IMG/VR virus record: IMGVR_UViG_3300011271_000003
Location: 1 to 64,000 of that record
DNA: 64,000 nt
Source of the DNA: a virus
Direction: 5' to 3' (one strand)
Below, in pieces: positions 19,181-42,361 of the stretch. The notes beneath the pieces were generated by a model. That model was not told where the DNA came from, did no database searches, and worked only from the letters and a program-made list of their open reading frames with translations. The position numbers and the translations under genes were made by a program. Each line of letters begins with the position of its first letter. Positions within the stretch are counted from its first letter, which is position 1.

Positions 19181-19960
19181 TCATTCTCCGCGACACCAGC
19201 GTTCTAGGATACCAATGTTGTGTCGGACTAGGCTGCCAGGTAGCTGAGCTGGTTCCAGCAGCATGTACCCTGCTTGTCGCTCAACGATGTCATCTTGGCA
19301 GTCGAGATGGCCACCCTCTGCAGCCCAGACGAAGGGTGCAGACGTGTCTACACCTCGGACGAATGGGCCGAGCTCTCTCGCTACGCTCCGGAGCTCTATC
19401 GGGTTCGATCTAGATAGTCCGAGCATATGCAGTGGGAACTGATCGTGATACTCCTGAACGACCCACTGCATGGTTATGAGACGGTCATTTTCCTCGTAGT
19501 CCTCCGTCATGCGCCGAGGGAATCCAAGGGTTATGTTCGTGCGATCGCTCTCTCCTACGAACTTAATGTAGTCCATTCGGCTACCAAGGTCCGTGCCCTG
19601 TACTACAGCCATGAGCTTTATGAACGGTGCTCGGATGGGCTGACGCTGATACCAGCGGTCGAAGTGACACAAGAACGCATCCTGCCGCTCTATGGTCTCT
19701 ACCGGATCGTCTTTCACGTCCGGCATTACGATCTCGGACACCTTGTACTCGGCTGCTAGTTCCAGGAGGTTCTGATCGTCGAGAATGTTTCCCTCAAACA
19801 TGCCGTTGTCTAGAATGACATGGAAGCTTGAGCTGTTGCCTAGGTACTTGTAGTGTCTCCGGTACGTCTCGTAGTCGAGGCCTACAGGTATGAGCATCTG
19901 GAGCTCTTGCTTGACTGTATGGTGGAGCATGCACACTGGCGGAATGAGCGCTAGTCTCAC
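19181..19960 (-). CDS. TGT-like TIM-barrel protein, putative DNA 7-deazaguanine transglycosylase (DpdA-like)
   Basis: ILDNGMFE, MPD, MAVVQG, LHMLG and RGVDTS motifs; GTG start after GGAG; clustered with que genes. Confidence 0.65.
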   Translation of the reverse strand: MRLALIPPVCMLHHTVKQELQMLIPVGLDYETYRRHYKYLGNSSSFHVILDNGMFEGNILDDQNLLELAAEYKVSEIVMPDVKDDPVETIERQDAFLCHFDRWYQRQPIRAPFIKLMAVVQGTDLGSRMDYIKFVGESDRTNITLGFPRRMTEDYEENDRLITMQWVVQEYHDQFPLHMLGLSRSNPIELRSVARELGPFVRGVDTSAPFVWAAEGGHLDCQDDIVERQAGYMLLEPAQLPGSLVRHNIGILERWCRGE

Positions 19961-20234
19961 AGGAACTCCGTCTCTGCTACTGCCCAGGCGATTGCATCCT
20001 GCTTGTATGCCCGTCCTAGTTCCGATAGCGCGTGCTTGAGCTTGTCGATATCTAGGATGCCCGTGATCTCGAAGCAAAAGCATACGTTCTGAAACGGAGC
20101 CGTAGGTATTGAGTGCCAAAAGCCATGTACCTGAGTAGCACGGTGAACTATGCTGTAGTGGACCTGGTGTGAGAAGTCTGACCAGTCCTTTTGGCTGAGC
20201 TTGTCGTCGCTGTTGCCTATACTGACGTAGACGA

Positions 20235-20558
20235 TCATGACTTCTGTCCGTATAGGTCGCCCATGGACATGAACCCTTCAGGTATGCCTGCCTGTTGCGC
20301 AGCTCGGTGCTTTGCCGTAATGGCATCTAGTGTCTTCTGTAGCATGTGAAGTTTGATCCAGGTAAAGCTGGCCCAGTTGATAATATCGGCAACCTCCTCC
20401 ATCAGCTCGGAAACGGTGTCAGCCTGTAGCCAGGTGAGCTTTCCGTACTCCTCCTCACCCTGTGCTAGTCGCTTCTTTAGCTCCTCGGCCAGGGCTGTCC
20501 GACCTTCCTCGACCATTGCTTCCAAAGCGCTTTTCATTGTACTTTCGCTTGCGGTCAT
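20235..20558 (-). CDS. MazG-superfamily-like helical protein
   Basis: GEEEYG...ELMEEVADIINW (EExxD) motif. Confidence 0.45.
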   Translation of the reverse strand: MTASESTMKSALEAMVEEGRTALAEELKKRLAQGEEEYGKLTWLQADTVSELMEEVADIINWASFTWIKLHMLQKTLDAITAKHRAAQQAGIPEGFMSMGDLYGQKS

Positions 20559-20820
20559 AGAGATCCTCTAGGTCGATTCCGAGTTGTCCTGCAAGACAAA
20601 AAGCATACACGAATACGTCTACGATTTCGTAGCCTATAGCTGTGCGTGTGTCAGTATCAAGGACTTGCGCACCACTCCGGTACCACTTCTTGTACTCACC
20701 CGCGGCCTCGCCAGCCTCGCCACACAGACCGATGATAGCGTGACTGACGTCATCTTCCAGATGAGGAAACCAACTGACCGTGTCCTCGATTGCCTGGGCC
20801 GTCCGATCATTCAGATTCAC
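20455..20820 (-). CDS. MazG-like nucleotide pyrophosphohydrolase
   Basis: GLCGEAGE..KK...YEIVDVFVY...K..YNEKR. Confidence 0.8.
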   Translation of the reverse strand: MNLNDRTAQAIEDTVSWFPHLEDDVSHAIIGLCGEAGEAAGEYKKWYRSGAQVLDTDTRTAIGYEIVDVFVYAFCLAGQLGIDLEDLYDRKRKYNEKRFGSNGRGRSDSPGRGAKEATSTG

Positions 20821-20971
20821 TGAGGCACCACGCTACGAGTTACCGACTTGACGTCTCTCTCTCGCATCTCTTCGAGGGCGTCCTCTCTAAACTGCCTAGC
20901 TACGCGAGCGTCCTTCTTATGCCTAGCAGGTCCGTCTTCGATCTGGCTTCCCTTGCTGGTCTTGATGAACT

Positions 20972-21214
20972 TCATGCTGTTTCACTTGCTTCTATCGCAC
21001 ATCTGACGAAGCAGTCCTTTGCATGTAGCAGATCCCATAGGCCTGCTGTGAGCTGCGTACTGTCTGGATAGCTGTCAATCATGTGCTCTGCTAGGTCGAA
21101 GACCGCTTCACTTGCATTGCGAGCAGGACCGTCAAGGTGTCTGAACTCGAACCAGCGCGCAATGGCCTTGACGGATGGGTGCCGACCTGTTGTGTTGATT
21201 ACTGGACCACTCAT
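20972..21214 (-). CDS. Conserved small helical phage protein
   Basis: F.F.HL...TAGL..LL.AKDCFVR pattern seen in many phages. Confidence 0.55.
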   Translation of the reverse strand: MSGPVINTTGRHPSVKAIARWFEFRHLDGPARNASEAVFDLAEHMIDSYPDSTQLTAGLWDLLHAKDCFVRCAIEASETA

Positions 21215-21425
21215 GGCTACCTCCTATGATAGGTAACGTTGTAGGTTCCATCGAGCACTGGCGTCAAGAGTAATCTCGCCCAGCTTAGGTCCTGACCAAG
21301 AGAGCTCTCCGTCATGTTCGAAGAGCTCGAACGTAACAGTTCCGTCGGCTCGTTCGTTGACGTTGATAAACTTTGGTCTGGACCCCACCTCACAGCCGGG
21401 CCCACGCTCACTGTAGGTGTACATG

Positions 21426-22205
21426 TTACCTCCCGTTGATCCTACTCAGAAACTCCTGTTTGGCTGTTTTGTCGTGGTCAGCGAAGACGCCCCGCATTGC
21501 GGCAGTGTACGTCCTAGTCCCTGTGGCCTGAACTCCACGGATTGACATACAGGTATGCTCTGCTTCCATCGCGACAGCTACACCTAGTGGCGTCAACTTC
21601 TCTTCGAGACCGTCAGCTATCTCTGTCGTCAGTTCTTCCTGCGTACTAAGGCTTGCCGCACACTGCAGGACGTAGCGCGGGATCTTGCTGAGCCCTGCTA
21701 GCTTACCGTTTGGGATATAAGCTACGTGTGCTACACCTGTATACGGCAGTACGTGGTGTCTACACAGGGAAGCAAACCGAATGTCAGCGACTACTACCAT
21801 CTCGTCTGATGTCGTGTCGAAAGTTGTGAACTCCCAGCTTGTATCTGGCGTCGTCAACTCTTTGATCGCTTGCGCCATTCGCTTCGGAGTGTCCCGCTCC
21901 TGTGGATCTTCTATGTTTAGGTTCGCGCACACTTCCAGAAAGTACTGGATACAGTCAGTCGGATATCTGTGCTCTTCGTGATACTTTCTAGCGTCGTACG
22001 CGTCTACGATCTGCGACGTTGGATCGAACGCAGGCGTAAGGATGTCTTTGTTGAAAACGGTGCAGGCCCCGCAGAAGGCGGCTTCACCGTGTACACACCT
22101 CGTATCCTCGTCTTCGCCTGTAGGATGTCGCGGCGTGTAGTGGAACTTCCCGGTACCGAAACCGTACATCGGCACAGGCACTTCATGGTACGGAGGGGGC
22201 ATCAT
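21426..22205 (-). CDS. folE: GTP cyclohydrolase I
   Basis: DTPKRMA, SLCRHHVLP, GLSKIPR, QEELT, AEHTCMSIRGV. Confidence 0.93.
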   Translation of the reverse strand: MMPPPYHEVPVPMYGFGTGKFHYTPRHPTGEDEDTRCVHGEAAFCGACTVFNKDILTPAFDPTSQIVDAYDARKYHEEHRYPTDCIQYFLEVCANLNIEDPQERDTPKRMAQAIKELTTPDTSWEFTTFDTTSDEMVVVADIRFASLCRHHVLPYTGVAHVAYIPNGKLAGLSKIPRYVLQCAASLSTQEELTTEIADGLEEKLTPLGVAVAMEAEHTCMSIRGVQATGTRTYTAAMRGVFADHDKTAKQEFLSRINGR

Positions 22206-22522
22206 CGCTCCATCGCTGAGATGTCGATCAGAGCGGCCAGCATCTTGTCGACGCGGACTCTTTCCTGATCATAGTCTTTCCTAAGCGCCCGTGTATCTTC
22301 ATGACCTTCAAGTAGTGTCTGAAATGCTTCAGCTACGACATACGCGATCTCATAGCTGAAGACGTATGCGGCTGGTGACTCACAGCCAGGTGCGACTTTC
22401 TCCCACGAGCTTGCGCCGTCTTCGACTCGAAGACCTAGCCGAGAGCCGTCGTCCGAGCGGTGGATGACGTGGACGAAGACCTGGCCTCTCGCAGGGTCTT
22501 CCCTTACAAATGCCTTGATCAT
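22202..22522 (-). CDS. Hypothetical protein
   Basis: ATG overlapping the queE stop; tiled ORF. Confidence 0.55.
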   Translation of the reverse strand: MIKAFVREDPARGQVFVHVIHRSDDGSRLGLRVEDGASSWEKVAPGCESPAAYVFSYEIAYVVAEAFQTLLEGHEDTRALRKDYDQERVRVDKMLAALIDISAMER

Positions 22523-23270
22523 CGCTTCCTCTCGTTTCCCCAGAGTAGTACGTGCTGTCGAAGTGAGAGACCGTAACCTCGAGCGAGTGTCTCCTTTACG
22601 AGTATCTTGCCCCTGTAGATTTGTCCTTTTGAGGTAGTGCCCTCGGGCATGATCATAACGCAGCAAGGCTGGATGTTACACTCCTTTACGATCTGGTCGA
22701 TTTCGTCGAAGTCGCTGCTGCGAGATACAACGAACTTGAAGTAGGCGCCGCAGAGGTGCAGGTGTCGTAGCACTGCTGGTTTGTATCGCTTGCTACGTAC
22801 GTTACCACTGTTTTCCAGCTTAGGGGAGACGACGAACTGGCTCACGTGGAAACGGAATTCGGATAGCGGCATAATGGTGCCTGCAGTCTCGATATGCCTT
22901 GTACATCCGAGTTCCTGGAGGAGGCGCAGCAGGGGCAGAAGTGCAGACTGCTGCATCATGGGCTCGCCGCCGCTAATTATGATCTTCGTCGGCTTGTTGT
23001 CGATATCCCACAAATTGCGCAGGTGATCTACCACCTCGTCTGCCCCCATCTCGTGACACTCTTCGGCTTTGTCAGACAGAATTGGAATTAGGAGCTTGTC
23101 TGCCTTAGCTTGTGTGACAGCCCAGGTGTAGTGCGTGTCGCACCAGGTGCACTCTAGGTTGCATCCGAAAAGCCTGACGAAGAGGCAGTGCTGTCCCGTG
23201 TAAGGACCTTCGCCCTGCCTAATTGAATAGTCGGACCGAAGATTTCGTTCACCTTCAGGAGACTATTCAT
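22519..23270 (-). CDS. queE: 7-carboxy-7-deazaguanine synthase (radical SAM); frame interrupted by an 8-nt insert at 23215-23222
   Basis: MNSLLKVNEIFGPTIQ in one frame, then GEGPYTG..FVRLFGCNLECTWCDT..ISGGEPM..IETAG..VSPKL in another; AAGGAGG RBS. Confidence 0.88.
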
Positions 23271-23284
23271 AAGACATCACCTCC

Positions 23285-23794
23285 TTAAATGTGGCGCCAG
23301 GTTCGGCGCTTGACGATGCTTGATATGCATGTCTCGGTTACTTGGAACCTTCGGGCTAGGTTACTGATTGGCCACTTACCCTCGTGCAGTCTCCGAATCT
23401 CAAGAACACTTTCTTCGGTCAGCTTTGCTCGCGGATGCGTTTCTCCTAGCAGAAGTGTCCCGTCGCGCCGTCTATCTTCCCCGTTATTCTTGCTGTACGT
23501 TCCCCATACCAGATTTGGAAGAGAGTCGTCTAGAGGGCCTAGAGGTCCGTGGCAGGGAATTTGTCCCTTAGGCCGTGCGCACACGAATGCCTCTAGAACT
23601 AGAACGGCAACTTTACAGTTCTTGCTGCGTCCATTACGCGTAAGGGAAACTATATAATTGCTCCATGTCTGGTTCTTGTGAATCTTACACTTGGAGAGTA
23701 TCTTTCCGTCTAGGTTCCTCACATCACCTTGGTCGGAGACCTCGTAGAGGTCCTCGTAATCTACCACGGGCAGCCAGTGTGCGATGTTAGTCAT
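23285..23794 (-). mobile_element. Free-standing NUMOD4-HNH homing endonuclease
   Basis: W.PVVDYEDLYEVSDQGDVR (NUMOD4); LVLEAFV...CH...NLVWGT...N; C-terminal HTH. Confidence 0.85.
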
Positions 23795-23838
23795 GACGGC
23801 TGAATTGTCGGTCCGAATATCTCATTAACTTGCAGCAT
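23791..23838 (-). pseudogene. Duplicate queE N-terminus (MLQVNEIFGPTIQPS*) upstream of the HNH gene
   Basis: GGAGG RBS plus a 15-aa peptide matching the QueE start; its TGA overlaps the HNH ATG. Confidence 0.8.
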
Positions 23839-23840
23839 GT

Positions 23841-24296
23841 TCACCTCCCTGGCCGCGCTACATGGATCGGCTCGTCTAGCGACTTCACGGTTGCTGCGTT
23901 GACTGCCGTCTCATGCACGGTGACGCGTACTGGTAGCTCGAACTCGTTCTCAGCCCAGGCGCAGATCCACCTAGCGATATTTTCTGTCGTGGGGTCATCC
24001 GGTACGCAGGTCAGGCCTGGCAGGTGGTCGTCCTGCTCCTCGATCCCCATAAAGCAGGTCCAGGGGTCGTCCTTGTTCAGCAGGAGGTGGTGGTCGTAGG
24101 TTGAGTTAAGGTAGTGTCGGAACGCTGCCTTCGCAGCCCCGAACTCGATACCGCCCAGGATTCCTTCCTCGTCGATCTCCCCGTAGATTGTGAGCTCAAC
24201 CCACATAGAGTGCCCATGTATGTTCTTGCACTTACCAGCCGTCATAGTTAGTCTATGCGCGACTTCTATGTTGTGCCGAATTGTTATGCTAGGCAT
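23841..24296 (-). CDS. queD: 6-carboxy-5,6,7,8-tetrahydropterin synthase
   Basis: AHRL, CKNIHGHS, DH..LN, PTTENIA, VHET. Confidence 0.92.
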   Translation of the reverse strand: MPSITIRHNIEVAHRLTMTAGKCKNIHGHSMWVELTIYGEIDEEGILGGIEFGAAKAAFRHYLNSTYDHHLLLNKDDPWTCFMGIEEQDDHLPGLTCVPDDPTTENIARWICAWAENEFELPVRVTVHETAVNAATVKSLDEPIHVARPGR

Positions 24297-24929
24297 CCGT
24301 CCTCCCTTGGGTCTTGCGCTTGATCTCCTCTAGAATCGGGATTGGCCTTCGTTCGTGGCCGTGTGGGACAAAACCTGAATCGTGCAGGACATACTCTGGT
24401 GGTTTTCCTTCTAGGAGGTTGCAGAACTCGTCCGCCCACATCTGCGATGCCATCTGATGCTCTGCCGTGACGAGGTTCTTATCGCGCGTGAGAGCGACTG
24501 TTTGCAAGATTGCACCTGCACGCTTGAGAAGGTCTCGGGACCTGACTAGCGGAAAGAACGAGACCTTCTTGCCTCTTGCAACGTTGCGTATTGCTGGGAC
24601 TGAACAACAGATGGCTGCTATTGCAAGATCAGCCGCGTTGGCGTTGTCGAAGACAGTCTGTACTCGCCTGTAGTTCCAGTAGTTCTCGGTGTCCGCCATG
24701 TTGCCGGACACAATCATGACTCCCTGGTACCTCGCCATGTCGTAGGGATCTATGTCGTCTACAAGTAGAGTGATTTTGTTCGGCTGCATAGTGATCTCGT
24801 CCTGGATAATGTAGTCCGTAGAGACGAGGTCAAACGTGTGGCCACGATTCTGGATGACACCAAGGGCCGTCCAGAGTTCATGTCCACTAAATTATAGCGA
24901 CGGGCGCATATAACTAGAACGCGTGTCAC
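24289..24929 (-). CDS. DJ-1/PfpI (class I glutamine amidotransferase-like) protein; frame interrupted by a 5-nt insert at 24886-24890
   Basis: MTRVLVICARRYN, then GHELWTALG... in another frame; GVMIVSG, IAAICCS, DKNLVTA motifs. Confidence 0.75.
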
Positions 24930-24931
24930 TA

Positions 24932-25426
24932 CTAAACCACCGCCCTTCGGTTAATACCTTTTCTGCTCCGGAGCTCAGGTGGTGTCTCCCAAATGTTGAC
25001 GGCCTGAGTTACGGGGCGTGCATGAATTAGACAGAGCTTCTTGTGACACGAATGTGCCAGAACTAGTCCTTCAGGTACTGGTCCGTTATGTGCCACCCAC
25101 CAAAGTACATGAACAGGCTGGCTATTGTAGAGCCCATAGCCTTTCTTATGTACAGCGCCAGTCCACATTCTGCAGCCAGCCTTGTCTATGCGTGAATCAG
25201 CCATAAGGATGGCTATCATTGCTGGACCGTTTTCTAGTGCTAGGCGCGCTGTCTTTTGCTGCGAACTTCTTGCGTTTCCTGACATACAACTTCTACACCA
25301 GGAGTGTCGACCGTCTCTGCGGCCGCTTCCTCGTGGGAAGTCCTTGAACTTCTTCATCTCTCCGCATTTGGTGCATGCGGTTTGTATACCTGACGCAACA
25401 TCTTCTAGGTATACATCGCGAGTCAT
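24932..25426 (-). mobile_element. Free-standing HNH endonuclease with N-terminal zinc finger
   Basis: CTKC...DGRHSWCRSC; CRMWTG..GYG..VH...GPVPEGLVLAHSC..LC..H..VTQAVN. Confidence 0.8.
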
Positions 25427-25842
25427 TACTTCGTGACCTGGTTCTTTTCTACGCCGAAGCGATCTATTACTTCGGCGGCGTCGATTACAGGTGCATCAGT
25501 GATGTTCACTGGTGCCTTACCTACAATGTCGCCACTGTGTGGCACTTTGGCGATGTTGTTGTATAGCGGGTTCGGCAGCCCCGTCTCCTCGTCTACGTCC
25601 GTTCTGGCTGCGTATATCTCGCCCTGCCTGTTGAAGATCCGAATTGGTAGATTGTGACTTCTGATGTACGCTCCGAGGCAGGAATTAAGACTTTGCAGTC
25701 CCTGCTGGATACCTGTGCGGTCTAGCTGTGCGACTACGAGTCCTGTTTCCAGGAAGGTCTTCAGAAGAGGATAGCTTACACGGCCTCTGTGTGATTCGCG
25801 AAAGTTGGGAATCTCATCTGGGGCGACTGCCTTCCACTTCAT
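25426..25842 (-). CDS. Hypothetical protein, first gene after promoter
   Basis: ATG after GAGG, directly downstream of a predicted promoter. Confidence 0.6.
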   Translation of the reverse strand: MKWKAVAPDEIPNFRESHRGRVSYPLLKTFLETGLVVAQLDRTGIQQGLQSLNSCLGAYIRSHNLPIRIFNRQGEIYAARTDVDEETGLPNPLYNNIAKVPHSGDIVGKAPVNITDAPVIDAAEVIDRFGVEKNQVTK

Positions 25843-25882
25843 GGCGAGTCCTCTCTCTCTTGTGGTTTGTTGTTCACCTCTT

Positions 25883-25911
25883 ATTGTATAATTGGTGAAG
25901 ATGAAATTCAA
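25883..25911 (-). promoter_or_regulatory. Sigma70/HrdB-type promoter TTGAAT-N17-TACAAT
   Basis: Near-consensus hexamers in an AT-rich intergenic gap upstream of the modification cluster. Confidence 0.7.
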
Positions 25912-26185
25912 GTGTTTAAACACGGCAAAGTTTTAACCACTTAAAGATTCCTGTCTAGGGATGATGGCTGGCTACTGCCGCTCTACGCTGCCTGTGCTCC
26001 AGATGTGCTGCTCCATGTACAGGTCGAATCGATCAGCTAGGACGTAAAACTCGTTTCTGGTAAGTACGATACTTTGACAGCGAAGCTTCTCGTCAGGTTC
26101 GTCCTCGCGGACGACGCTAGCTTCTACTTCGATCCAGTCTGTACCTGCTTCGTCGAGAGTGCACGCTTCCAACGTCACTCTCGAC

Positions 26186-27817
26186 TTAGGCCTCACGCTG
26201 AGGTCCCTCAGCTACTGCTTCCTTCCAGAACTCCGTGTCTGCATACTGTGTCTTGTCCCAGTTTTTAGGCGCCTTGGTTACGCTAGCGATCGCCTCTAGT
26301 CTCTCGACACAGGTTCCGCACCTGCCACAGTGAATTTCGTTGCCTCTGTAACAACTCCAGGTCAGCTCGAGAGGTACGCCCCGGCGGTACGCCTCGGCAG
26401 CTATGTCGTCTTTGGAGAGGTGGATGAAGGGGACGAGGATTTCGAAGTTAGGCCGAATGAATCCCTCGTTGCCCCACTGCAGCGTCTCTAGCACTGAGTG
26501 CATGAAGATAGGTCTGCAGTCTGGATACTGATAGTGGTCGCCGGCGTGCATACCGGCTGCGACATAACGGTACTTCGCGTTGACTGCAACAGCTGCAGCG
26601 ATCGAGAACATCATCATGTTCCGGTTAGGTACTACGGTAATGGCCATGTTGTCGGCACTGTTATGCGACAAGTAGCCGTCTGCGATGAGAGTACTTGTGC
26701 TGGTCCCTAGTGCTACGACAGCGCGGTTGCCTACAGGTTCGACGGATACCACTCTGACTGGACGAGTGCGCGAGCCTGCTATCCATCGTCCCTCCCAGAG
26801 ACGACGGGCGCTCTGCCTGAAACGTGTTGGCTGGAACATTCCAACGAACCGCAGAGCCGTCTGCTCACCTTCTAGGCGGAATCGGAGACACTCTGTTTTT
26901 GTCTCCTTTGTGTTCTTGAAGCCCTCGCTTGGTTGGAATCCGAACTTCTTGAGTGCAACCTTGACGCGCTCAAGAGTCTCTCCAGGATTCTGCGAGAATT
27001 GGAAGTTCGTGTCATGCAGGGTGGCTTCGCCATCCATGAAGCCTGCAAGGTATCCGGCGTCACTATCAGTTTGTACTTCCCAAGGGTTCAGGTAGAGCGA
27101 AAGCGTGTCACCGGGCATGAGTCCTAGAGAGTGTCCACTAGGACCTGAGGTAACCGTTGGGTCGTACGTTTTGCGCCACCTACGCCCTGTAGCCAGACCA
27201 CCGCCGCTACGTCCTCTTCTAGCTACCCAAAGGTGGTCGTAGCTAGCTACGACCTCTTGTCCCGTCTCTAGTACTATGCGAGCACAGGGCAGAACCTTAA
27301 CGCTGGTTGCCGTTACTGTCGATTCCTGCAGCTTCGAAGCTGGTTTGCCCTGTTGTCCTGAGCGTAGCTCTTCATCGAAGCCTACGACCTTGTCTCCTAC
27401 TGCTAGGTCTTCGATATTGCGCCACACAAGGTCAGTGCATAGTACCTTCGTGCCTGGTGCTAGACAGTAGTGACCTTCCGGAACTTCAATTCGGGAATGC
27501 ACCGTAGCAGTGTTGCGGTCCAACACCGTAGGCTGCGGAGGCGAGGTGAGAGCGGAGTTGCTGATCAGATCGGTAATACTGGACAGGTCGATCCGCGACC
27601 ACCGGAGCCCCAAGCGTTCCGCGGTCCACAGGGCGTATTGGAGCTCCTTCAGGTGCCTCTGGCCGTAGTCGAACGAAAGGAGGTGCGGGCGCTTTCCGAG
27701 ATGTACGAGGTGGTAGGCCGTGGTAATGCTGTCCAGTCCGCCTGAGACAATGGCGACACCATCGCTCTTGTCGTTCTCCCAATCAGGCTCGTACCTAGAA
27801 ACAAGCTCTGTTCCCAT
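26186..27817 (-). CDS. queC: 7-cyano-7-deazaguanine synthase, intein-containing
   Basis: SGGLDS, SFDYGQRH..E, VPNRN, YPDCRP, TWSCY...HCGRCGTC.ER; AAAGGAG RBS. Confidence 0.95.
   Translation of the reverse strand: MGTELVSRYEPDWENDKSDGVAIVSGGLDSITTAYHLVHLGKRPHLLSFDYGQRHLKELQYALWTAERLGLRWSRIDLSSITDLISNSALTSPPQPTVLDRNTATVHSRIEVPEGHYCLAPGTKVLCTDLVWRNIEDLAVGDKVVGFDEELRSGQQGKPASKLQESTVTATSVKVLPCARIVLETGQEVVASYDHLWVARRGRSGGGLATGRRWRKTYDPTVTSGPSGHSLGLMPGDTLSLYLNPWEVQTDSDAGYLAGFMDGEATLHDTNFQFSQNPGETLERVKVALKKFGFQPSEGFKNTKETKTECLRFRLEGEQTALRFVGMFQPTRFRQSARRLWEGRWIAGSRTRPVRVVSVEPVGNRAVVALGTSTSTLIADGYLSHNSADNMAITVVPNRNMMMFSIAAAVAVNAKYRYVAAGMHAGDHYQYPDCRPIFMHSVLETLQWGNEGFIRPNFEILVPFIHLSKDDIAAEAYRRGVPLELTWSCYRGNEIHCGRCGTCVERLEAIASVTKAPKNWDKTQYADTEFWKEAVAEGPQREA
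26660..27466 (-). mobile_element. Intein with LAGLIDADG endonuclease in QueC
   Basis: CLAPGT...YLAGFMDGEA...YLSHN followed by S. Confidence 0.92.
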
Positions 27818-32516: not shown

Positions 32517-34184
32517 TCAGCTAGTTTCTGGCTTCTTGCTGATGCCTTGCGTGATTCCCTTGTAGATGTCTGCCATTGTCGGGTCGATCATAACATCCGG
32601 TAGATTCCCAGATCTGTCCTTTCCGATATATCCCTCGCGTGCGCCTGTAAGTAGCTTGCGGACAGGCTTGCCGTCTTCTGTCTTCATGTACAGGTAGGTG
32701 ACGACATCGAAGAACCCCGCCACCTCGAACGAGAGCTTCCCTGACAACTGAGGCATGTGCAGGATCGAGCCGTTCAGGGCGTCTTTCTCTTGCCGTTCGT
32801 GAGCTGTCATGATCACGTTGACGGGGAGGTCACGGTACTTGCGAACCCACTTGCGAATCTGCTCTATATTCTTACCCCACCTCCTGATATCCGGAATGTC
32901 TGGGTCCCAGTTCTTCTCTGGTTCTGCCATAAGCAGCTCGGCCATAAGCTGGGACATGTTCATTTTCTGGCACTCGGTAAGAGTATCCAGAATGACAGTG
33001 CGTGGCGCGTACTCTCCAGGTTGTACGCCATTGTAGCAGTTGTGGACGAAGATTCCCGCTCCTATGGCGAAGTTTCTTGTCGAAGTTTGAATGTCGAATG
33101 TGGGCTCTTCTCCTGCTGGCGTTATGGAGACTACTCTGTGGTTTTGCTTATTTTCCTGTAGGATCCTGTAGACGCGCGATACTGATAGATTCAGGTGCTC
33201 TGCTACTTGCATCCGTGTCCAGTCAGGGTGTTCTTGTATAGCAGTCGCAACTTGGTCACGACTGGACCCCTGACCTGGCCTGCCCCTCTTCTCATTGTAG
33301 TACTCCTGTAGTCCCGCTGCACTAGCTTGCTCTGACTCAGAAGTGTGCCACTTGAAGTCTGTCAGCTTAGAGTGATCTCCCCGTGAAAGGCACTCTAGGT
33401 TGTCAGGGTAGTTGTTGAATGTGTTGTTGGGATCAGCATCGTTGCGGTGGTGTACGACCATACCTTCAATATCCATGCCGAAGAACCTCGCTGCGACTCT
33501 GTGCATATACTCCAATGGAGTCGTCCATTTGTTGTCCGGCTTGACTACGTGGTACTGCTTTTTTGACTTACCTACTGTAACGGTGCTCACGGTAGCAGGC
33601 ATCAGCGATGTGCCTCGGATGAGCTTATCTACGCGTGCATAGGTTCCATCGCGCAGCATAAGAAGGTGGTCTCCAGTTGCCCTAAATCGAGAAAGATTCC
33701 CAACTCTGTCGTCGAGTACGACTTCGTATACAGGCTTAACGCCCTGTACGAAGACTTCCTCGACTAGGGCCGGCGTCCAGCCGTCTTCGTCCGTCCACCC
33801 CCAGACCCAGTCTCCCTTTTGTAGGGCGGCTATTAGCCTGTTCCTGTTGAGCGTAATGACTTCGGTGTCACCTGTCAGGCATTGTCGAGCTATCTGATCG
33901 TACACTGCCTCTAGCTGGGCCCAGGAGAGGCTTCCTTCCTCTGGAACCTTTTTGATCTCTGGAGCTGCATGCCGAAGCGTCATGTCCCCGCCCTCAATGT
34001 TGAGGTACAGGACCGGACGCATTGCGGGCACGTGATCCGCCGTAGCAGCCAGGAACGTCTTGCCGACGCCAGGCTGGCCATATATAAGTAGGTTGATATT
34101 GGCACGTGTGTCTCTGACCGGGGCAAAAGGAATGCCCGCGAACGTCTTTGGACTTACGACAACGTTTGCCGCCGGAGTGGTCAC
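32517..34184 (-). CDS. AAA_24/Sak4-like ATPase, intein-containing
   Basis: Walker A GQPGVGKT, Walker B VILDTLT, MTAHE, FFDVV.Y, GKDR. Confidence 0.8.
   Translation of the reverse strand: MTTPAANVVVSPKTFAGIPFAPVRDTRANINLLIYGQPGVGKTFLAATADHVPAMRPVLYLNIEGGDMTLRHAAPEIKKVPEEGSLSWAQLEAVYDQIARQCLTGDTEVITLNRNRLIAALQKGDWVWGWTDEDGWTPALVEEVFVQGVKPVYEVVLDDRVGNLSRFRATGDHLLMLRDGTYARVDKLIRGTSLMPATVSTVTVGKSKKQYHVVKPDNKWTTPLEYMHRVAARFFGMDIEGMVVHHRNDADPNNTFNNYPDNLECLSRGDHSKLTDFKWHTSESEQASAAGLQEYYNEKRGRPGQGSSRDQVATAIQEHPDWTRMQVAEHLNLSVSRVYRILQENKQNHRVVSITPAGEEPTFDIQTSTRNFAIGAGIFVHNCYNGVQPGEYAPRTVILDTLTECQKMNMSQLMAELLMAEPEKNWDPDIPDIRRWGKNIEQIRKWVRKYRDLPVNVIMTAHERQEKDALNGSILHMPQLSGKLSFEVAGFFDVVTYLYMKTEDGKPVRKLLTGAREGYIGKDRSGNLPDVMIDPTMADIYKGITQGISKKPETS
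33039..33881 (-). mobile_element. Intein carrying an HNH endonuclease and an HTH
   Basis: CLTGDT...ATGDH...YMHRV..VVHHRN..NN.PDNLE..H...IFVHN followed by C. Confidence 0.88.
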
Positions 34185-34775
34185 TGGCGCTCCTCTTTGC
34201 ATGGGCTGCCGTTGAGCATACATTCTGCCGCTACAAGTACTGCTTCAGCATAGCCTTCGTCGTGTGACTCCCAGCCATGCTCGCCTTCGACGTGTTCCCA
34301 GAGCTTCTCAGGATCAATTCCGACCGCAAGACCTATACGGTCGCACTCAGTTGGCCTGGGATCGAGGTCTATCCAGGGTTCGCCTACACTCACTGGCGCT
34401 CCAATACGGAGTGGGACGGAGGTACTTGGACGGCTGGTTCCGTAACTGTCCAGGGGCCAGCCTGTTCGCAACCTTTGGTTCTGTCGCAGAAGAACGTTTG
34501 GCGAACATCTATCTGAAGGTGTTTAAGTGCCTCTGCTGCATGTATTGCCAGTGTGTCACCTGTAGGAATGACGGTAAGTGAGTTCTGATGTACTGCATGA
34601 GCGTGTACTGTTACGTCTCCTACGAATCCAGGTTTGGAGCACACACCACACGAGCTACCAAAGACGAACTTCTTCATTCTGACTACCTTTCAGCCTGTTG
34701 TTCTCTTTATCCGCCAGCCGTACCAGGTAGCGATGTCAACATAAGCCTTGGCGAGGCTCCCAGCGGAGAAAGACG

Positions 34776-35267
34776 TTATCTGATGGCACTATCCACCTCT
34801 AGGTTCAGTCTTGCAAACTCTCCGAAAAGTTCCTTCGCTTTCTCATCGTATGCCCTTGCTGCCTCAACCTCATCGTCGAAGTAGCCCAGGTGATAGTGTT
34901 CGCCTGTACAGTTTACGTAAGCAACCCACTTACCTCTTCGCTTGTACCAGGAGACACCTTTGAATCGACTTGACCCTCTACGCGACGTAGAGTTAGCGAG
35001 GTTCTGTGCGTGGGTTGCTTCTCGTAGGTTGGTCCTAACATTGTTTAGTCCGTTTCCGTCTTTGTGGTCAATCTGAACTCTACCCATGATAAGGTTATGC
35101 ATGTAAATATAAGTAGTCTGATAGTCCTTCGTCTTGCTAGCTCTGGCGTACACAAGCCAGGGGTTACAGGTAGGCGTAAAAGGGTACCACTTGCGCCTGC
35201 TAACCAGGTCGTAGTCTTCGTCGTCAATAAAGGCCACGGCGCTACCTACCGGTATCTCTCTCATCAC
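34776..35267 (-). mobile_element. HNH-AP2 homing endonuclease
   Basis: IDHKDGNGLNN..NLR; SRFKGVSW...HLGYF..E.EAARAYD. Confidence 0.9.
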
Positions 35268-37426
35268 TCGCCCCCTTTAGACTCTGTGCTGGCGCCCAAC
35301 TTTTGTCGTACGTAGTACGGGAGTCTTCGCTCATACAGAGTGTTAAGTGTGTACTGATAGTCTTGTCCGGAGTTTTGGGAAATGCAGGGTGTTTGGAAAG
35401 CGCAGAAGTTGCAACCGAATTTTCCAGGGGAAGGGTAAATACGGAGGTTCGGGTCGATCATGTCTCGGACTTCGGCTAGTAGGTTCTTTTCGACCTGATC
35501 CAGTTCGTAGTCGGACTTGTACACAATGAACCTACGGTAGTAATCGGTTCCGGCTGTTTTAAGGTGCTCGAGGAACTCGTCGTACGCACCTTCTTGCCAC
35601 GCCTCTGTGTCGAACTCTTTAATGTGTGCGAGGTAGACTTCGTAGCTCGTGGCCTGATTTACGTTAACGCTAAACAACCTGCCAAGACGTCGCTGCTTGT
35701 TCTCCTTGGGAGGTTCCGGAAATGCTTTACGTTGTTCGTGATAGATGAAACCACGAACGTTCAGATTCAGCTTCTTTCTTAGCGCCATACAATAGCTGTT
35801 TCCTGTTACTACTATCTGGCCATTCTGACGCATTACCCAGGTGCCGAGGCGAGTAGTTGGGCACCAAACTGGTCGAGGCTCTGGCAGATTAGTTGTTACT
35901 ATTGTTCTAGTCCACTTGCGTGGCTCACTTACAACAGTTTGTTGGCACCTCTTGGCGCCATGCTGAGTAGTTGGATACTTGCCTGAGAGGAAAAAAGCTA
36001 GGCAAAATAGGTCGTTCTTCAGTCCTGGGTTCTGGTGGAACTTATTAGAGTGCCCTTCTGCGAGGATGATAGTCTCACAGAATACTTGACGTGCCTTAGG
36101 CGCTAGCCCGAGGACGAACGATTCCCACCCGTCTAGTTCGTAATTGAGCTTGGCCTTGTCTAGTAGCCGCCGGAAGAAAGGAGCACGCAAGTGCCACTTC
36201 AACCCCTGGACGCCCTTTCCTTGGGGTCCGAACCCTCCGCTGAACTTCGAGATGCTAGAGTAGCAGTCGCTAAACCTATCGAGGAGGCTCTGAATCTCTT
36301 TAACGTACTTGCTCTGAGCAATTGTTACCTGAACGCCTCTGGGTCCTCTGCTGATGTTTCCGTCTGACAGCACCCAGGCAATAACAGCTGCCTCGTCAGG
36401 AGTAATATCGTTAGTAGGGTTGTCCAGCTCGGCTGCTAGTACGACGTAGGCTTGTTGTTGTCCGTTCTTGAGCGCCTGAAGCTGATACGCTCCATGGTCT
36501 GGCGTTGTTGTGTGAGTTCGCTTCGCCCATCTATGTTCGGGAGTTGTGATAAAGTCGAAGGACTTTGCTCTAGAACGAACAACGCTCGTTGGTCCATACA
36601 CGTTGACGTCCTCTAGGAGAGTCCACTCTAGAGCGTCTTCTTTTCCGTTATAGCCGAGGACCTCTTCGCCTACGACAAGCTGATTGTGGTGCTTCCAGCC
36701 ACTACGAGTAAGAATTTCTGAGTCAAGTGGTACACAGGCGATTTGATCATCGAGCTCCAGGAAGACTTCACTGGTAGAAAGTTGCGCTGCAGTCTTCCAG
36801 TCCCAGGTGGGCTTTAAAATCCAGTAGTACCCCTCCATGTCGTGAACGACCAAGTCTACGCGCCCGGAGAGAACTACAGGATTTCCAAACCACCTCCCTC
36901 CGCCGTTCTTGGCGAAGGCTTTTCGACAGGTGACACACTTGCAAAAGACTTGCTCGCCGTTCTCGTCTGTCAAAGGTACGTCGAAGCTGGCTTCAACATA
37001 CACGGGAACGTACTTGGCCTGGATGTCTGCAAGCTGATTATTAACGTAGTACCAAATCATCCCCCGGCCTAGACGGACTCGCTCGGAATAGTCTTCTTCG
37101 ACCTCACCTCCGAGCGCTTGCTCTCCGTTAGCGCGTAGGTACTCTCGCATCTGTTGTTCGCAGATGTCGAAGAAGGCCTTCTCGGCTAGGGCCCCCAAAA
37201 CCTTAGGGTGGTATTTCCAGGTTGCCGGGTTATGCAGCACCTCCATCGCCTTATGGTACGCTATTCCGAACTCAAGCGGTTTGGCTGTCACTGTGGGATA
37301 GTAATTCTGTCTGAACAACCAGTTCCACCTACGTCGACATCCTCTGAACGATCTGCGCTCGCTGGTGTGTATCTCGTGCATGAGCCCACGAGCAATCATA
37401 TCCTCAGCGTAGACAGCTAGGGCCAC
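35264..37426 (-). CDS. Cas4-like PD-(D/E)XK exonuclease, intein-containing, with a 12-nt in-frame insert at 36806-36817
   Basis: SERRSFRGCRRRW, FGIAYHKAME, GRVDLV, DWKT, C-terminal CNFCAFQTPC. Confidence 0.85.
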   Translation of the reverse strand: MALAVYAEDMIARGLMHEIHTSERRSFRGCRRRWNWLFRQNYYPTVTAKPLEFGIAYHKAMEVLHNPATWKYHPKVLGALAEKAFFDICEQQMREYLRANGEQALGGEVEEDYSERVRLGRGMIWYYVNNQLADIQAKYVPVYVEASFDVPLTDENGEQVFCKCVTCRKAFAKNGGGRWFGNPVVLSGRVDLVVHDMEGYYWILKPTWDWKTAAQLSTSEVFLELDDQIACVPLDSEILTRSGWKHHNQLVVGEEVLGYNGKEDALEWTLLEDVNVYGPTSVVRSRAKSFDFITTPEHRWAKRTHTTTPDHGAYQLQALKNGQQQAYVVLAAELDNPTNDITPDEAAVIAWVLSDGNISRGPRGVQVTIAQSKYVKEIQSLLDRFSDCYSSISKFSGGFGPQGKGVQGLKWHLRAPFFRRLLDKAKLNYELDGWESFVLGLAPKARQVFCETIILAEGHSNKFHQNPGLKNDLFCLAFFLSGKYPTTQHGAKRCQQTVVSEPRKWTRTIVTTNLPEPRPVWCPTTRLGTWVMRQNGQIVVTGNSYCMALRKKLNLNVRGFIYHEQRKAFPEPPKENKQRRLGRLFSVNVNQATSYEVYLAHIKEFDTEAWQEGAYDEFLEHLKTAGTDYYRRFIVYKSDYELDQVEKNLLAEVRDMIDPNLRIYPSPGKFGCNFCAFQTPCISQNSGQDYQYTLNTLYERRLPYYVRQKLGASTESKGGE
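35798..36736 (-). mobile_element. Intein (LAGLIDADG-type, ends in GN) in the Cas4-like nuclease
   Basis: CVPLDS...TPEHRW...WVLSDG...ILAEG...VWCPTT..VVTGN followed by S. Confidence 0.88.
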
Positions 37427-37621: not shown

Positions 37622-38047
37622 TTAGCACCTACAGGCAACATAGCCACATCTGTTACAGACTACACGGCCACGTCGCGCAGCGTGTCGTACTCTGCTACAC
37701 ACCTTACATTCGTGCGAGACCGTGTGAACGCCAAATAGCGCTTTGAGGTGCCCGTTACTACAGTACGGGCTGTATGCTTCTGCTATGTTCTCTTTGTGTG
37801 TAATAGGCCGCACATGCTCCCAGAACGCACGCTTGTCTTTCTTTCGTATGTGTCCGAGCTCGAAACCTTCAGGTACTTCTCCTACGAAGTGGTTGTATGC
37901 GACTAGGTGCGCAGGATGGCTTATCCAAGCTAGACAGAATTGTCCGTATCCCCAGGATCCGTACGTGCCACCACGCCAGTTCCAGCAGCCCGTTTCTAGA
38001 TCTACCACGCAAAAGCTGTAGAAGCGCCTGAGGTCAGCTTCTGACAT
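37622..38047 (-). mobile_element. HNH-like endonuclease with Cys-rich C-terminus
   Basis: GCWNW..GYG..AH...GEVPEGFELGH...H...ITHKEN; ends CNRCGYVACRC. Confidence 0.75.
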
Positions 38048-38399
38048 AAGCAACCTAGTCAATTGGCCCACTCCTTGTGTTGACCATAAGTCCACAGGCT
38101 AGGAGCGCCTCAGTTAGTTCCAACTTCAGGCCTGCTATATCTCCCGGCATAGTGTCTTCCGCCTTGATACCATATACTCGGAGCGCTGCTCTGGCAAGTC
38201 GGAGTTGTGCCAGTCTGATTTCGCCATAACTAAAGGGTGCGCCTGGGGCCTCCGGGTCGAGCTGGTTTGAATGGTATGCGGACCTAGGTCCGTCCACAAG
38301 CGTCGCCCCTGTGTCTCGTCCTTGTTGGAAGTGGCCGGCACGTCTGACTGGAATAACCATACTGCTTCGGTGTCGCATACATTCTCCGTTCAAGGTCCG

Positions 38400-40908: not shown

Positions 40909-41127
40909 CTATGCCTCCACTAGGTAGTCGAACTCACCCTTCTTGACGCCGCCCAGAAACGCTTCCCACTCCTCTCTGGTGTATGCGAGCGCAGGGCCTT
41001 TGGGGTCCCTACCGTTTCGCACGAGTACGGCTATTGGCTTTCCATCGAAGTGCGTTCCTTCAGGTGCTGCAGCCACCTCGAAGCAGGCACCATTGTTAAC
41101 GCTGTAAGATGACTTCTTCCACTGCAT
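40909..41127 (-). CDS. DUF397 (BldB-family) protein
   Basis: WKKSSYS..NGACFEVA...VRN..DP.GPAL.YT..EWEAFL.GVK.GEFD. Confidence 0.88.
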   Translation of the reverse strand: MQWKKSSYSVNNGACFEVAAAPEGTHFDGKPIAVLVRNGRDPKGPALAYTREEWEAFLGGVKKGEFDYLVEA

Positions 41128-42031: not shown

Positions 42032-42361
42032 CTACTCCTCCCATTGTACGTGTCCGTATTTACGCAGGGCCTCGCTCAGTCGGCGAACCTTCGCTGCTAT
42101 TGCTTCGTCGTCCATCATGCCTCGGCTGTATTTATGGTGGTCAACGTAGGGGTCGTAGGCCTTAGTAGGTCCCTCGTCGTAGAAGCACCAGAGACACGTC
42201 TATGTTAGGTCTCCTGTTAGACCCTGGATACACTCGAACTTGCAGTGGCAGTGCCTGCATACAACCCAGACCCATACGTAGGGCCTGTGTGTCCTTGCGT
42301 CCCTTGCTGACCGTCCATCTCTACAAGGACCTGGAACCTTAATGTCGGTTCTGTCGACTAT
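42032..42361 (-). pseudogene. Zinc-ribbon ORF with internal TAG and no canonical start
   Basis: Frame IVDRT...CRHC..C...DLT*TCLWC...WEE* fills the gap after the helicase. Confidence 0.4.

Follow-up and report, generated by a model that had tools for sequence, protein, structure and literature searches.

Four extra codons beside the catalytic motif of a phage AddB/Cas4-like nuclease as a candidate in-frame coding gap

The question raised by this locus is whether twelve nucleotides that stand in frame in the middle of a gene are also represented in its protein. The window, i.e. the whole stretch of DNA that was analysed, comprises 64,000 nucleotides (nt) of a virus (positions 1 to 64,000 of IMG/VR record IMGVR_UViG_3300011271_000003), and on its minus strand a gene of 720 codons, including an intein, encodes an AddB/Cas4-like exonuclease (35264..37426). 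An earlier sequence-only reading had noticed four extra codons, LKPT, beside the catalytic DxK motif of this nuclease and had proposed that they are hidden from the protein by an in-frame bypass. We find that the insert is more than chance and propose, with a probability of roughly 55%, that LKPT is the in-frame member of a family of short coding gaps hopped by ribosomes, of the type proposed for the Streptomyces phage phiHau3. Both the hop itself and its efficiency at the nuclease gap are what we infer from the comparisons given below.

The nuclease protein matched PDDEXK_1 in Pfam (E value 6.7e-12) and the phage exonuclease family phrog_1218 in PHROGs, and a high-confidence model of its intein-free homolog P0002 resembled the nuclease domains of AddB and AdnAB, the Cas4-family ACE1 and RecE. 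The family features of PD-(D/E)XK enzymes were all present, namely GRxD, (D/E)xK, QxxxY and a Cys cluster made up of one N-terminal Cys and CxxC...C at the C terminus. Alignment revealed that D191, D209, K211, Q228 and Y545 are invariant in the family and kept in the query, while C672, C675 and C681 correspond to nearly invariant columns. D191 of GRVD (motif II) is encoded by GAC at 36854..36856, and D209-W-K211 (motif III), with D209 and K211 invariant in alignments A1 and A3, by GAC TGG AAG at 36794..36802. Judged by these sequence features the protein is an AddB/Cas4-like PD-(D/E)XK enzyme with an iron-sulphur (Fe-S) cluster, in agreement with the Cas4-like assignment made earlier. At the site in question the minus strand reads TAC TAC TGG ATT TTA AAG CCC ACC TGG GAC TGG AAG ACT, i.e. 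YYWI-LKPT-WDWKT, in the wider context GRVDLVVHDMEGYYWI-LKPT-WDWKTAAQ. The insert, TTA AAG CCC ACC (36806..36817; residues 204-207), is thus placed between I203 and W208, two residues ahead of the catalytic D209-x-K211. In homologs the position of Ile203 is I, V or L and is followed directly by xDWK. The four extra codons are therefore as the sequence-only reading had described them, except that its interval of 36803-36820 had also taken in the flanking ATT and TGG codons; its other two measurements also held, as TTA occurs once in the 720 codons counted, and the codon of the first intein residue, Cys231, lies 69 nt downstream of the insert (about 70 nt had been given).

To place the insert among related enzymes, about 180 homologous proteins were gathered, of which the first 77 were aligned and the longer ones were read directly, and the distance between GRxD and DxK was measured in 154 related loci from IMG/VR and metagenomes. 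YWI-WDWKT was unbroken in all full-length homologs examined, and neither the 77-protein alignment nor the longer homologs contained a full-length protein with an in-frame insert between the hydrophobic residue and xDWK. The GRxD-to-DxK distance was 51 nt in 148 of the 154 loci, 54 or 57 nt in the other six and 63 nt in the query, and the extra residues of the six longer-spaced loci were found in the hairpin turn, not adjoining DxK. The homolog alignment, which had been named as a check of the sequence-only reading, thus supports it, with no in-frame insert at the site among a total of about 300 homologous proteins and loci and a spacing that is nearly fixed at 51 nt. Structure prediction, named as a further check, gave a similar answer. 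In the model of P0002, YWIWDWKTA forms one continuous strand (E201-209) with a predicted local distance difference test score (pLDDT) of about 96, and the point of insertion lies in the middle of this strand. In the AlphaFold2 model of the query, with LKPT, the strand was gone and residues 205-210 (KPTWDW) had pLDDT below 50, while the remaining nuclease scored above 90. The insert therefore breaks the contiguous D-x-K strand, as had been claimed. A tblastn search with the N-extein against 50,697 phage records gave no match, and the IMG/VR scans with P0014, P0094 and P0081 did not recover the contigs of these three proteins.

The first codon of the insert is as unusual as its position. The whole genome (G000), 98,804 nt long with 55% G+C and direct terminal repeats, uses TTA as its rarest codon (42 of 26,496 codons in a crude whole-genome set of open reading frames (ORFs), the next rarest codon being found 203 times). 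In the 19 ORFs of at least 300 codons, TTA occurred in frame at 3 of 10,931 codons, as against 172 and 42 occurrences in the other two frames. One of the three is codon 3 of its ORF, another is a final codon, and the only internal one is the LKPT codon, confirming that the insert starts with an extremely avoided codon. Related contigs showed the same avoidance of TTA. ARAGORN detected no transfer RNA (tRNA) genes in the window or in the whole 98.8-kb genome, and no transfer-messenger RNA in the whole genome. A stand-alone DUF397 gene is present at 40909-41127 (minus strand; E value 6.6e-19). The DUF397 family is largely actinomycete, and the best matches of the helicase encoded by the phage were actinophages, weak and with roughly 30% identity; the DUF397 gene and these weak helicase matches are a hint of an actinobacterial host.

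Related nuclease alleles were found to carry inserts at or near the same place, and came to notice through three truncated homologs (P0014, P0011 and P0026). Two loci from two metagenomes (L089 and L090, corresponding to protein P0014 and also P0184) read TGG ATC TGG GAT-TTACCTAGTC-TGG AAG ACA, with a 10-nt insert that starts with an in-frame TTA and lies 6 nt downstream of the site of the query. Past the insert the +1 frame is intact up to the normal C terminus (206 amino acids in L089) and keeps QxxxY and the Cys cluster. The genes of L089 and L090 differ at four bases, three of them synonymous in the downstream frame and one exchanging V and I. Another homolog, P0011, reads ...YWI-LQ- and is then followed by a frame with WDWKPAAQLS...ELDDQTASYCWA, which implies an insert of 8 nt at the exact junction of the query. 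P0026 ends with ...YWI-LRH-LGLEA..., where LGLEA is WDWK read one base off, and overlaps the 843-amino-acid P0081 by a one-base shift, both proteins being encoded on a contig of 10,717 nt in length; an insert of 10 nt followed by an intact frame with two inteins is implied. The inserts of all these related alleles begin with TTA or a Leu codon and are followed by an intact downstream frame; in the query 513 codons are intact after the gap. Lengths of 8, 10, 10 and 12 nt around one spot fit a non-coding gap, not a coding insertion. The variable inserts of the homologs are thus out of frame and begin with TTA or a Leu codon, and are not the tolerated insertions of variable length, devoid of TTA, against which the sequence-only reading had been set.

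These data bear upon the simplest alternative, namely that LKPT is an ordinary lineage-specific insertion of four residues, accommodated by a longer beta-hairpin, which starts with TTA by chance. The insert is indeed in frame, a few subfamilies do have a hairpin turn that differs by one or two residues, the allele has stayed stable in all three sources that contain it and all the catalytic residues are kept. However, the position that varies in homologs is the turn and not the strand beside DxK, where no homolog has an in-frame insert, and the four residues contain a proline, sit in mid-strand two residues from the catalytic Asp and are modelled as disordered. A chance TTA is also unlikely when it is the sole internal one among 10,931 long-ORF codons, and the inserts of the sister alleles at the same site are not multiples of three. 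An ordinary tolerated insertion is hence improbable in our estimate.

Two other genes of the same phage carry gaps which, unlike LKPT, break the frame; both are in the window, on the minus strand. The queE gene (22519..23270; identified by sequence, Pfam and structures) is distributed over two frames, one of 16 codons (23223-23270) and the other of 231 codons (22519-23214), separated by the 8-nt gap TTAGGCAG (23215..23222). Translation from the start at 23270 gives MNSLLKVNEIFGPTIQ and then meets TTA, and the arrangement CAA-TTAGGCAG-GGC GAA GGT puts GEGPYTGQHCLFVRLFGCNLEC in the other frame. The downstream frame starts at GEG, and in alignments its first residue is matched by residue 34 of QueE from E. 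coli (6nhl_A) and by residue 37 of QueE from B. subtilis (5tgs_A). The motif EIFGPT(I/V/F)QGEG was uninterrupted in 24 of the 25 related queE loci inspected, and omission of exactly the 8 nt restores TIQGEG. The DJ-1/PfpI gene (24289..24929; sequence and Pfam) is likewise divided into 13 codons (24891-24929) and 198 codons (24289-24885) by the 5-nt gap TTAGT (24886..24890). It reads MTRVLVICARRYN, then AAT-TTAGT-GGA CAT GAA, and continues as GHELWTALG in the other frame, with the DJ-1_PfpI match in Pfam beginning at profile position 15. The DJ-1 genes of four relatives are continuous (VVCARRYNGHELW), and omission of TTAGT restores RYNGHELW as found in them. The gap-bearing DJ-1 genes are as constrained as the gap-free ones (nonsynonymous divergence about 0.26, synonymous divergence saturated).

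Gaps were also present in relatives of these two genes, where they start with a stop codon. The closest queE relative (L164; IMGVR_UViG_3300036828_000198) reads ATC TTC GGC CCT ACT-TGACC-ATC CAG GGG GAA at 1470-1500, with TGA directly after ACT, and skipping of the 5 nt gives IFGPT/IQGEG; alternatively, translation could start anew at the TTG that directly precedes ACC. In L247 (IMGVR_UViG_3300012353_000129) the DJ-1 gene reads TAC AAT-TAGT-GGC CAC at 1190-1205, a gap of 4 nt that begins with TAG. A genome-wide scan of the query for further frame-joining TTA sites gave no convincing one; the other TTA junctions that it listed, e.g. +1595 and -32246, were false positives caused by out-of-frame TTAs inside ordinary ORFs. 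PHROGs searches with TTA-containing short ORFs gave no informative match.

Comparison of the gaps revealed a common rule for their ends. DNA sequence was at hand for eight gaps, six here and two in phiHau3. When each gap is searched in any frame for a triplet that agrees with the take-off codon, i.e. the codon before the gap, at position 1 and has a position-3 base of the same purine/pyrimidine class, the earliest one is, in all eight, the triplet with which the gap ends. The pairs of take-off and landing codons are CAA and CAG in queE of the query, both Gln; ACT and ACC, both Thr, in queE of L164; AAT and AGT in DJ-1 of the query as well as of L247; GAT and GTC in the nuclease of L089/L090; GGC and GGT in gap 1, and TCT and TCC in gap 2, of the phiHau3 terminase. 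In the query nuclease the proposed take-off codon is ATT of Ile203 (36818..36820), which would be in the P site while TTA is in the A site, and the proposed landing codon is ACC (36806..36808), the first triplet of the gap to share position 1 and a position-3 pyrimidine with ATT. A rough estimate, taking (1/8)(7/8)^(L-3) per gap and discounting the related DJ-1 pair, puts the probability of coincidence far below 1e-4. Furthermore, the first codon of every gap with DNA sequence is TTA or a stop, i.e. one that is slow in the A site, and the consensus returns when precisely the gap is left out. In queE (z -3.6) and DJ-1 (z -1.5) a hairpin was predicted that has its end at the take-off codon, and gap 2 of phiHau3 is similar. 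At the nuclease site a Shine-Dalgarno-like GGAGGGG is located 11 nt 5' of ATT.

The gaps of queE and DJ-1 co-occur with homing-endonuclease genes. A gene for an HNH_3 endonuclease is inserted directly upstream of the gapped DJ-1 gene (24932..25426, minus strand; Pfam), and a homolog with 57% identity occupies the same place only in the gap-bearing L247 (725-1150), the four gap-free relatives being without it. Between queD and the gapped queE lies an ORF with NUMOD4 and helix-turn-helix (HTH) domains, a putative homing endonuclease (23285..23794, minus strand; Pfam). L164 also has an extra ORF between queD and its gapped queE (942-1454), in which a LAGLIDADG-like motif was recognised by eye and Pfam gave no match; in gap-free relatives queD is 38-405 nt away from the GEG codons of queE. 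As regards the nuclease, an intein that contains an endonuclease is located 12 nt away from the gap site in the relatives P0094, P0081 and P0187. In the query, a free-standing HNH_3 and AP2 endonuclease gene abuts the 3' end of the nuclease gene (34776..35267, minus strand; Pfam), and a weak HNH_3-like ORF is present upstream of it (37622..38095, minus strand; Pfam E value 0.0033, below the gathering cut-off). No homolog of the HNH_3 and AP2 endonuclease adjoined the nuclease gene in the other loci examined. The gaps probably arose as DNA that makes a site resistant to a homing endonuclease; the gap of gene 60 in phage T4 has this role towards MobA.

Taken as a bypass, the nuclease gap could work as follows. 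With AUU of Ile203 in the P site, the ribosome would meet UUA, a codon that the phage avoids and for which it has no tRNA, in the A site. While the A site stays empty, peptidyl-tRNA(Ile) would release AUU, the mRNA would slide by 12 nt, and the tRNA would re-pair with ACC through positions 1 and 3. Decoding would then restart at UGG GAC UGG AAG and produce the canonical strand YYWI-WDWKT, and the bypass product, once the intein is spliced out, would be the active nuclease. Ribosomes that read UUA would instead make the LKPT form, in which the strand with the catalytic Asp and Lys is broken and the enzyme is probably crippled. Since the gap is a multiple of three, both products would be of full length, and their ratio would be set by the charged tRNA-Leu(UAA) of the host. 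The two could be told apart by the peptide across the junction, expected to be YYWILKPTWDWK if LKPT is decoded and YYWIWDWK if the gap is skipped. Other routes to the same sequences were considered and discarded. Gaps of 4, 5, 8, 10 and 12 nt are incompatible with one uniform frameshift, whether -1 or +1, which would also place additional residues within invariant motifs, and a hop from TGG to TGG, i.e. from Trp to Trp, would cost the protein two conserved residues. Insertion by templating or duplication was rejected as no template was found for the 12-mer in the genome, nor for the 10-mer in L089/L090.

Several observations weigh against the bypass of LKPT. The 12-nt gap is in frame, unlike the frame-breaking sister gaps of 5, 8 and 10 nt, so that nothing forces a bypass, and the protein is of full length under ordinary decoding as well. 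ACC as landing codon is no more than near-cognate, with tRNA-Ile pairing only at positions 1 and 3, whereas the pairs in phiHau3 and queE are synonymous. No significant RNA fold was detected at the nuclease site in comparison with shuffled sequence (z +0.8). The nuclease gap shows no consistent link to any homing-endonuclease gene, the HNH flanks being found only in the query genome. The inserts of P0011 and of P0026/P0081 are deduced from overlapping reading frames. In L247, a conserved Leu at codon 5 of DJ-1 is encoded by an in-frame TTA; one related system at least can therefore read this codon, which may be regarded as slow rather than unreadable. The loss of the strand in the AlphaFold2 model is soft evidence because there is no alignment depth at the inserted residues. 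The sequence-only reading is accordingly upheld in part on two counts. Its in-frame bypass is strongly, though indirectly, favoured by the two frame-breaking TTA gaps in the same genome, by the stop-started gaps in relatives and by phiHau3, and is disfavoured by the near-cognate landing and the lack of significant RNA structure. Its view that normal decoding distorts the active site agrees with the lost strand and the pLDDT below 50 in the query model, which is the same soft evidence, and ordinary decoding to LKPT may still take place.

The strongest competitor of the bypass reading takes LKPT to be translated normally and to damage or inactivate the nuclease. The insert would then be a mutational scar, e.g. 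from the repair of a break made by a homing endonuclease at this intein-prone site, seen at a stage when the gene has not yet decayed, and the out-of-frame alleles of the relatives would be pseudogenes. The site is a hot spot for mobile elements, as P0094, P0081 and P0187 have an intein 12 nt downstream at DWK/T, and the length as well as the position of the insert differs among alleles. Alleles with and without a gap are intermingled in a tree built from the N-terminal region. The non-cognate landing codon and the disrupted strand in the AlphaFold2 model can also be counted in its favour. Random scars, however, would not all start with an in-frame TTA or Leu codon, nor would they all close with a triplet that resembles the codon ahead of the insert. 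None of the four lineages has lost its downstream frame (843 amino acids with two inteins in P0081, 206 amino acids in L089 and 513 codons in the query), and the explanation would require dead queE and DJ-1 genes too, inside an otherwise intact 7-deazaguanine cluster. The gap-bearing DJ-1 genes show no relaxed constraint. We therefore consider a scar unlikely.

A last explanation supposes that the extra bases are removed or corrected before translation, by RNA excision or editing, or that they are an artefact of sequencing or assembly tied to modified DNA. The phage does have a 7-deazaguanine pathway, and its DNA may be modified. The LKPT allele, however, was found in three sources, one of them a variant with a separate substitution, and is thus not an assembly artefact; L089 and L090 likewise come from separate metagenomes, and defined inserts of 12 nt are not produced by errors of the Illumina type. 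Excision fares no better, as 4-12 nt is too short for group I, group II and bulge-helix-bulge introns, and the last base of the nuclease inserts (query, L089/L090) is C, whereas group I introns have a terminal G. Size and end bases thus ruled out introns of the group I and bulge-helix-bulge types, and removal or artefact as a whole appears very improbable.

The closest precedent of the proposed bypass is phiHau3, for which UUA-triggered bypass of two 10-nt gaps in the large terminase gene was proposed by Smith et al. (2013), as reported in PMC10732093, and partly tested by Antonov et al. (2023, RNA Biol; PMC10732093). The latter study also considered two related prophage terminases (StrepC.1 and S. 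catenulae), one of which has a gap of 7 nt, and detected a junction peptide by mass spectrometry in E. coli with a UAA variant (PMC10732093). We confirmed both gaps in the phiHau3 sequence, as GGC-TTACTCCGGT-AAG and TCT-TTAACGGTCC-ACG. As in the present phage, the gap is a short block that starts with UUA (7-10 nt there and 5-12 nt here), it lies in a highly conserved stretch the flanks of which are contiguous in homologs, UUA is otherwise avoided, and the gap closes with a triplet akin to the codon that precedes it. The two cases differ in that phiHau3 is a Streptomyces phage with gaps in its terminase gene, whereas here the nuclease, queE and DJ-1 genes of an uncultured soil phage of 55% G+C are concerned. 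The nuclease gap also differs in being in frame, in its near-cognate landing (ATT to ACC, as against synonymous codons) and in having no strong 5' hairpin, and a co-occurrence with homing endonucleases, as seen here for queE and DJ-1, is unreported for phiHau3.

In phage T4, the 50-nt bypass of gene 60 lies within a MobA homing-endonuclease cassette (Manning and Atkins, bioRxiv 10.1101/2022.08.31.505936), and the gap, inherited along with a free-standing HNH gene, is regarded as a protection of the site against cleavage (Bonocora et al., as cited in bioRxiv 10.1101/2022.08.31.505936). There too a non-coding insert occupies a conserved catalytic region and is skipped by the ribosome, as is proposed here, and a slow A-site codon follows the take-off (UAG in T4; TTA, TGA or TAG here); co-occurrence with an endonuclease gene is shared with the queE and DJ-1 gaps. 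In contrast, the T4 gap is 50 nt long and comes with GGA codons that match each other, with a stem-loop at the take-off site and with a signal in the nascent peptide. The nuclease site showed none of these features, and the gaps described here are of 4-12 nt and have no sequence homology to it. Lang and colleagues reportedly described, in 2014, programmed bypassing elements ('byps') of 27-55 nt in the mitochondria of Magnusiomyces capitatus, related to mobile GC clusters. Like the present gaps, byps are short, numerous and spread over several genes of one genome, begin with a poorly decoded codon and have related take-off and landing codons; they are unlike them in their length of 27-55 nt, their mitochondrial location and their relation to mobile GC clusters. 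For E. coli, PMC10732093 and PMC5009743 cite hopping at a low level where a codon is 'hungry' or a stop (Weiss et al. 1987; Gallant), as well as an in-frame hop of two codons (Kane et al. 1992). These indicate that in-frame hops are possible, as required here, but they are synthetic or over-expression cases of low efficiency. A recoding review of 2016 knew of no natural in-frame bypassing (PMC5009743).

If the proposal is true, natural in-frame bypassing would have its first example in the nuclease gap. Natural bypassing is known from very few systems, namely T4 gene 60 and its relatives, the byps of yeast mitochondria and the still-contested UUA case in three Streptomyces phage or prophage terminases. 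At least eight short gaps in three unrelated genes of several related phages are involved here and, if they are bypassed, hopping triggered by UUA or a stop codon would be a recurrent decoding strategy and not a curiosity. The landing rule suggests a simple and testable basis for such hops. In-frame gaps escape gene callers as well as frameshift finders, and some annotated 'insertions' in active sites would, if bypassed, be absent from the protein. We put forward tentatively, and with less than even confidence, a broader picture, in which a clade of uncultured soil phages, probably actinophages, would routinely carry gaps of 4-12 nt started by UUA or a stop in several genes. The gaps would travel with homing endonucleases as site-protecting cassettes and be decoded by short hops that need re-pairing at positions 1 and 3 only, and the nuclease gap would act as a switch between active and crippled enzyme that depends on tRNA-Leu(UAA), i.e. 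as a translational sensor of the state of the host.

The intein of the query nuclease comprises residues 231-543 (CVPLD...VVTGN, followed by S544; 35798..36736, minus strand) and was delimited by comparison with homologs. It lies within the QxxxY motif, across which intein-free homologs read DDQIA-SY/TY, and the same site is used in the homologs P0085, P0086, P0091 and P0098. It has the features of a class 1 intein, with C231 as first residue, N543 as terminal residue, S544 as the +1 nucleophile and exteins that directly adjoin each other in homologs. P0094, P0081 and P0187 use a second site, WDWK/T, 12 nt downstream of the gap site. This second intein has LAGLIDADG-type motifs, begins with ELKVTHD... 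with no Cys, Ser or Thr at position 1, contains a Cys within ...RCIAVD... and ends with VVTHN; by its sequence it looks like a class 3 intein. It coexists with the 10-nt gap in P0026/P0081.

Some neighbouring genes may also be recorded. The 7-deazaguanine cluster extends over 19181-27817, where the PTPS/QueD and QueE genes were confirmed, and is interrupted by two endonuclease genes; both of the genes directly downstream of these endonuclease genes carry coding gaps. At 42045-42360 on the minus strand, an ORF for an SNF2-type helicase has TTA as its last sense codon and is followed by about 310 nt without an ORF of at least 60 amino acids on the same strand. An AAA_24 (Sak4-like) ATPase gene adjoining the nuclease region (32517-34223, minus strand) has an intein of its own, with an HNH_3 and HTH endonuclease module.

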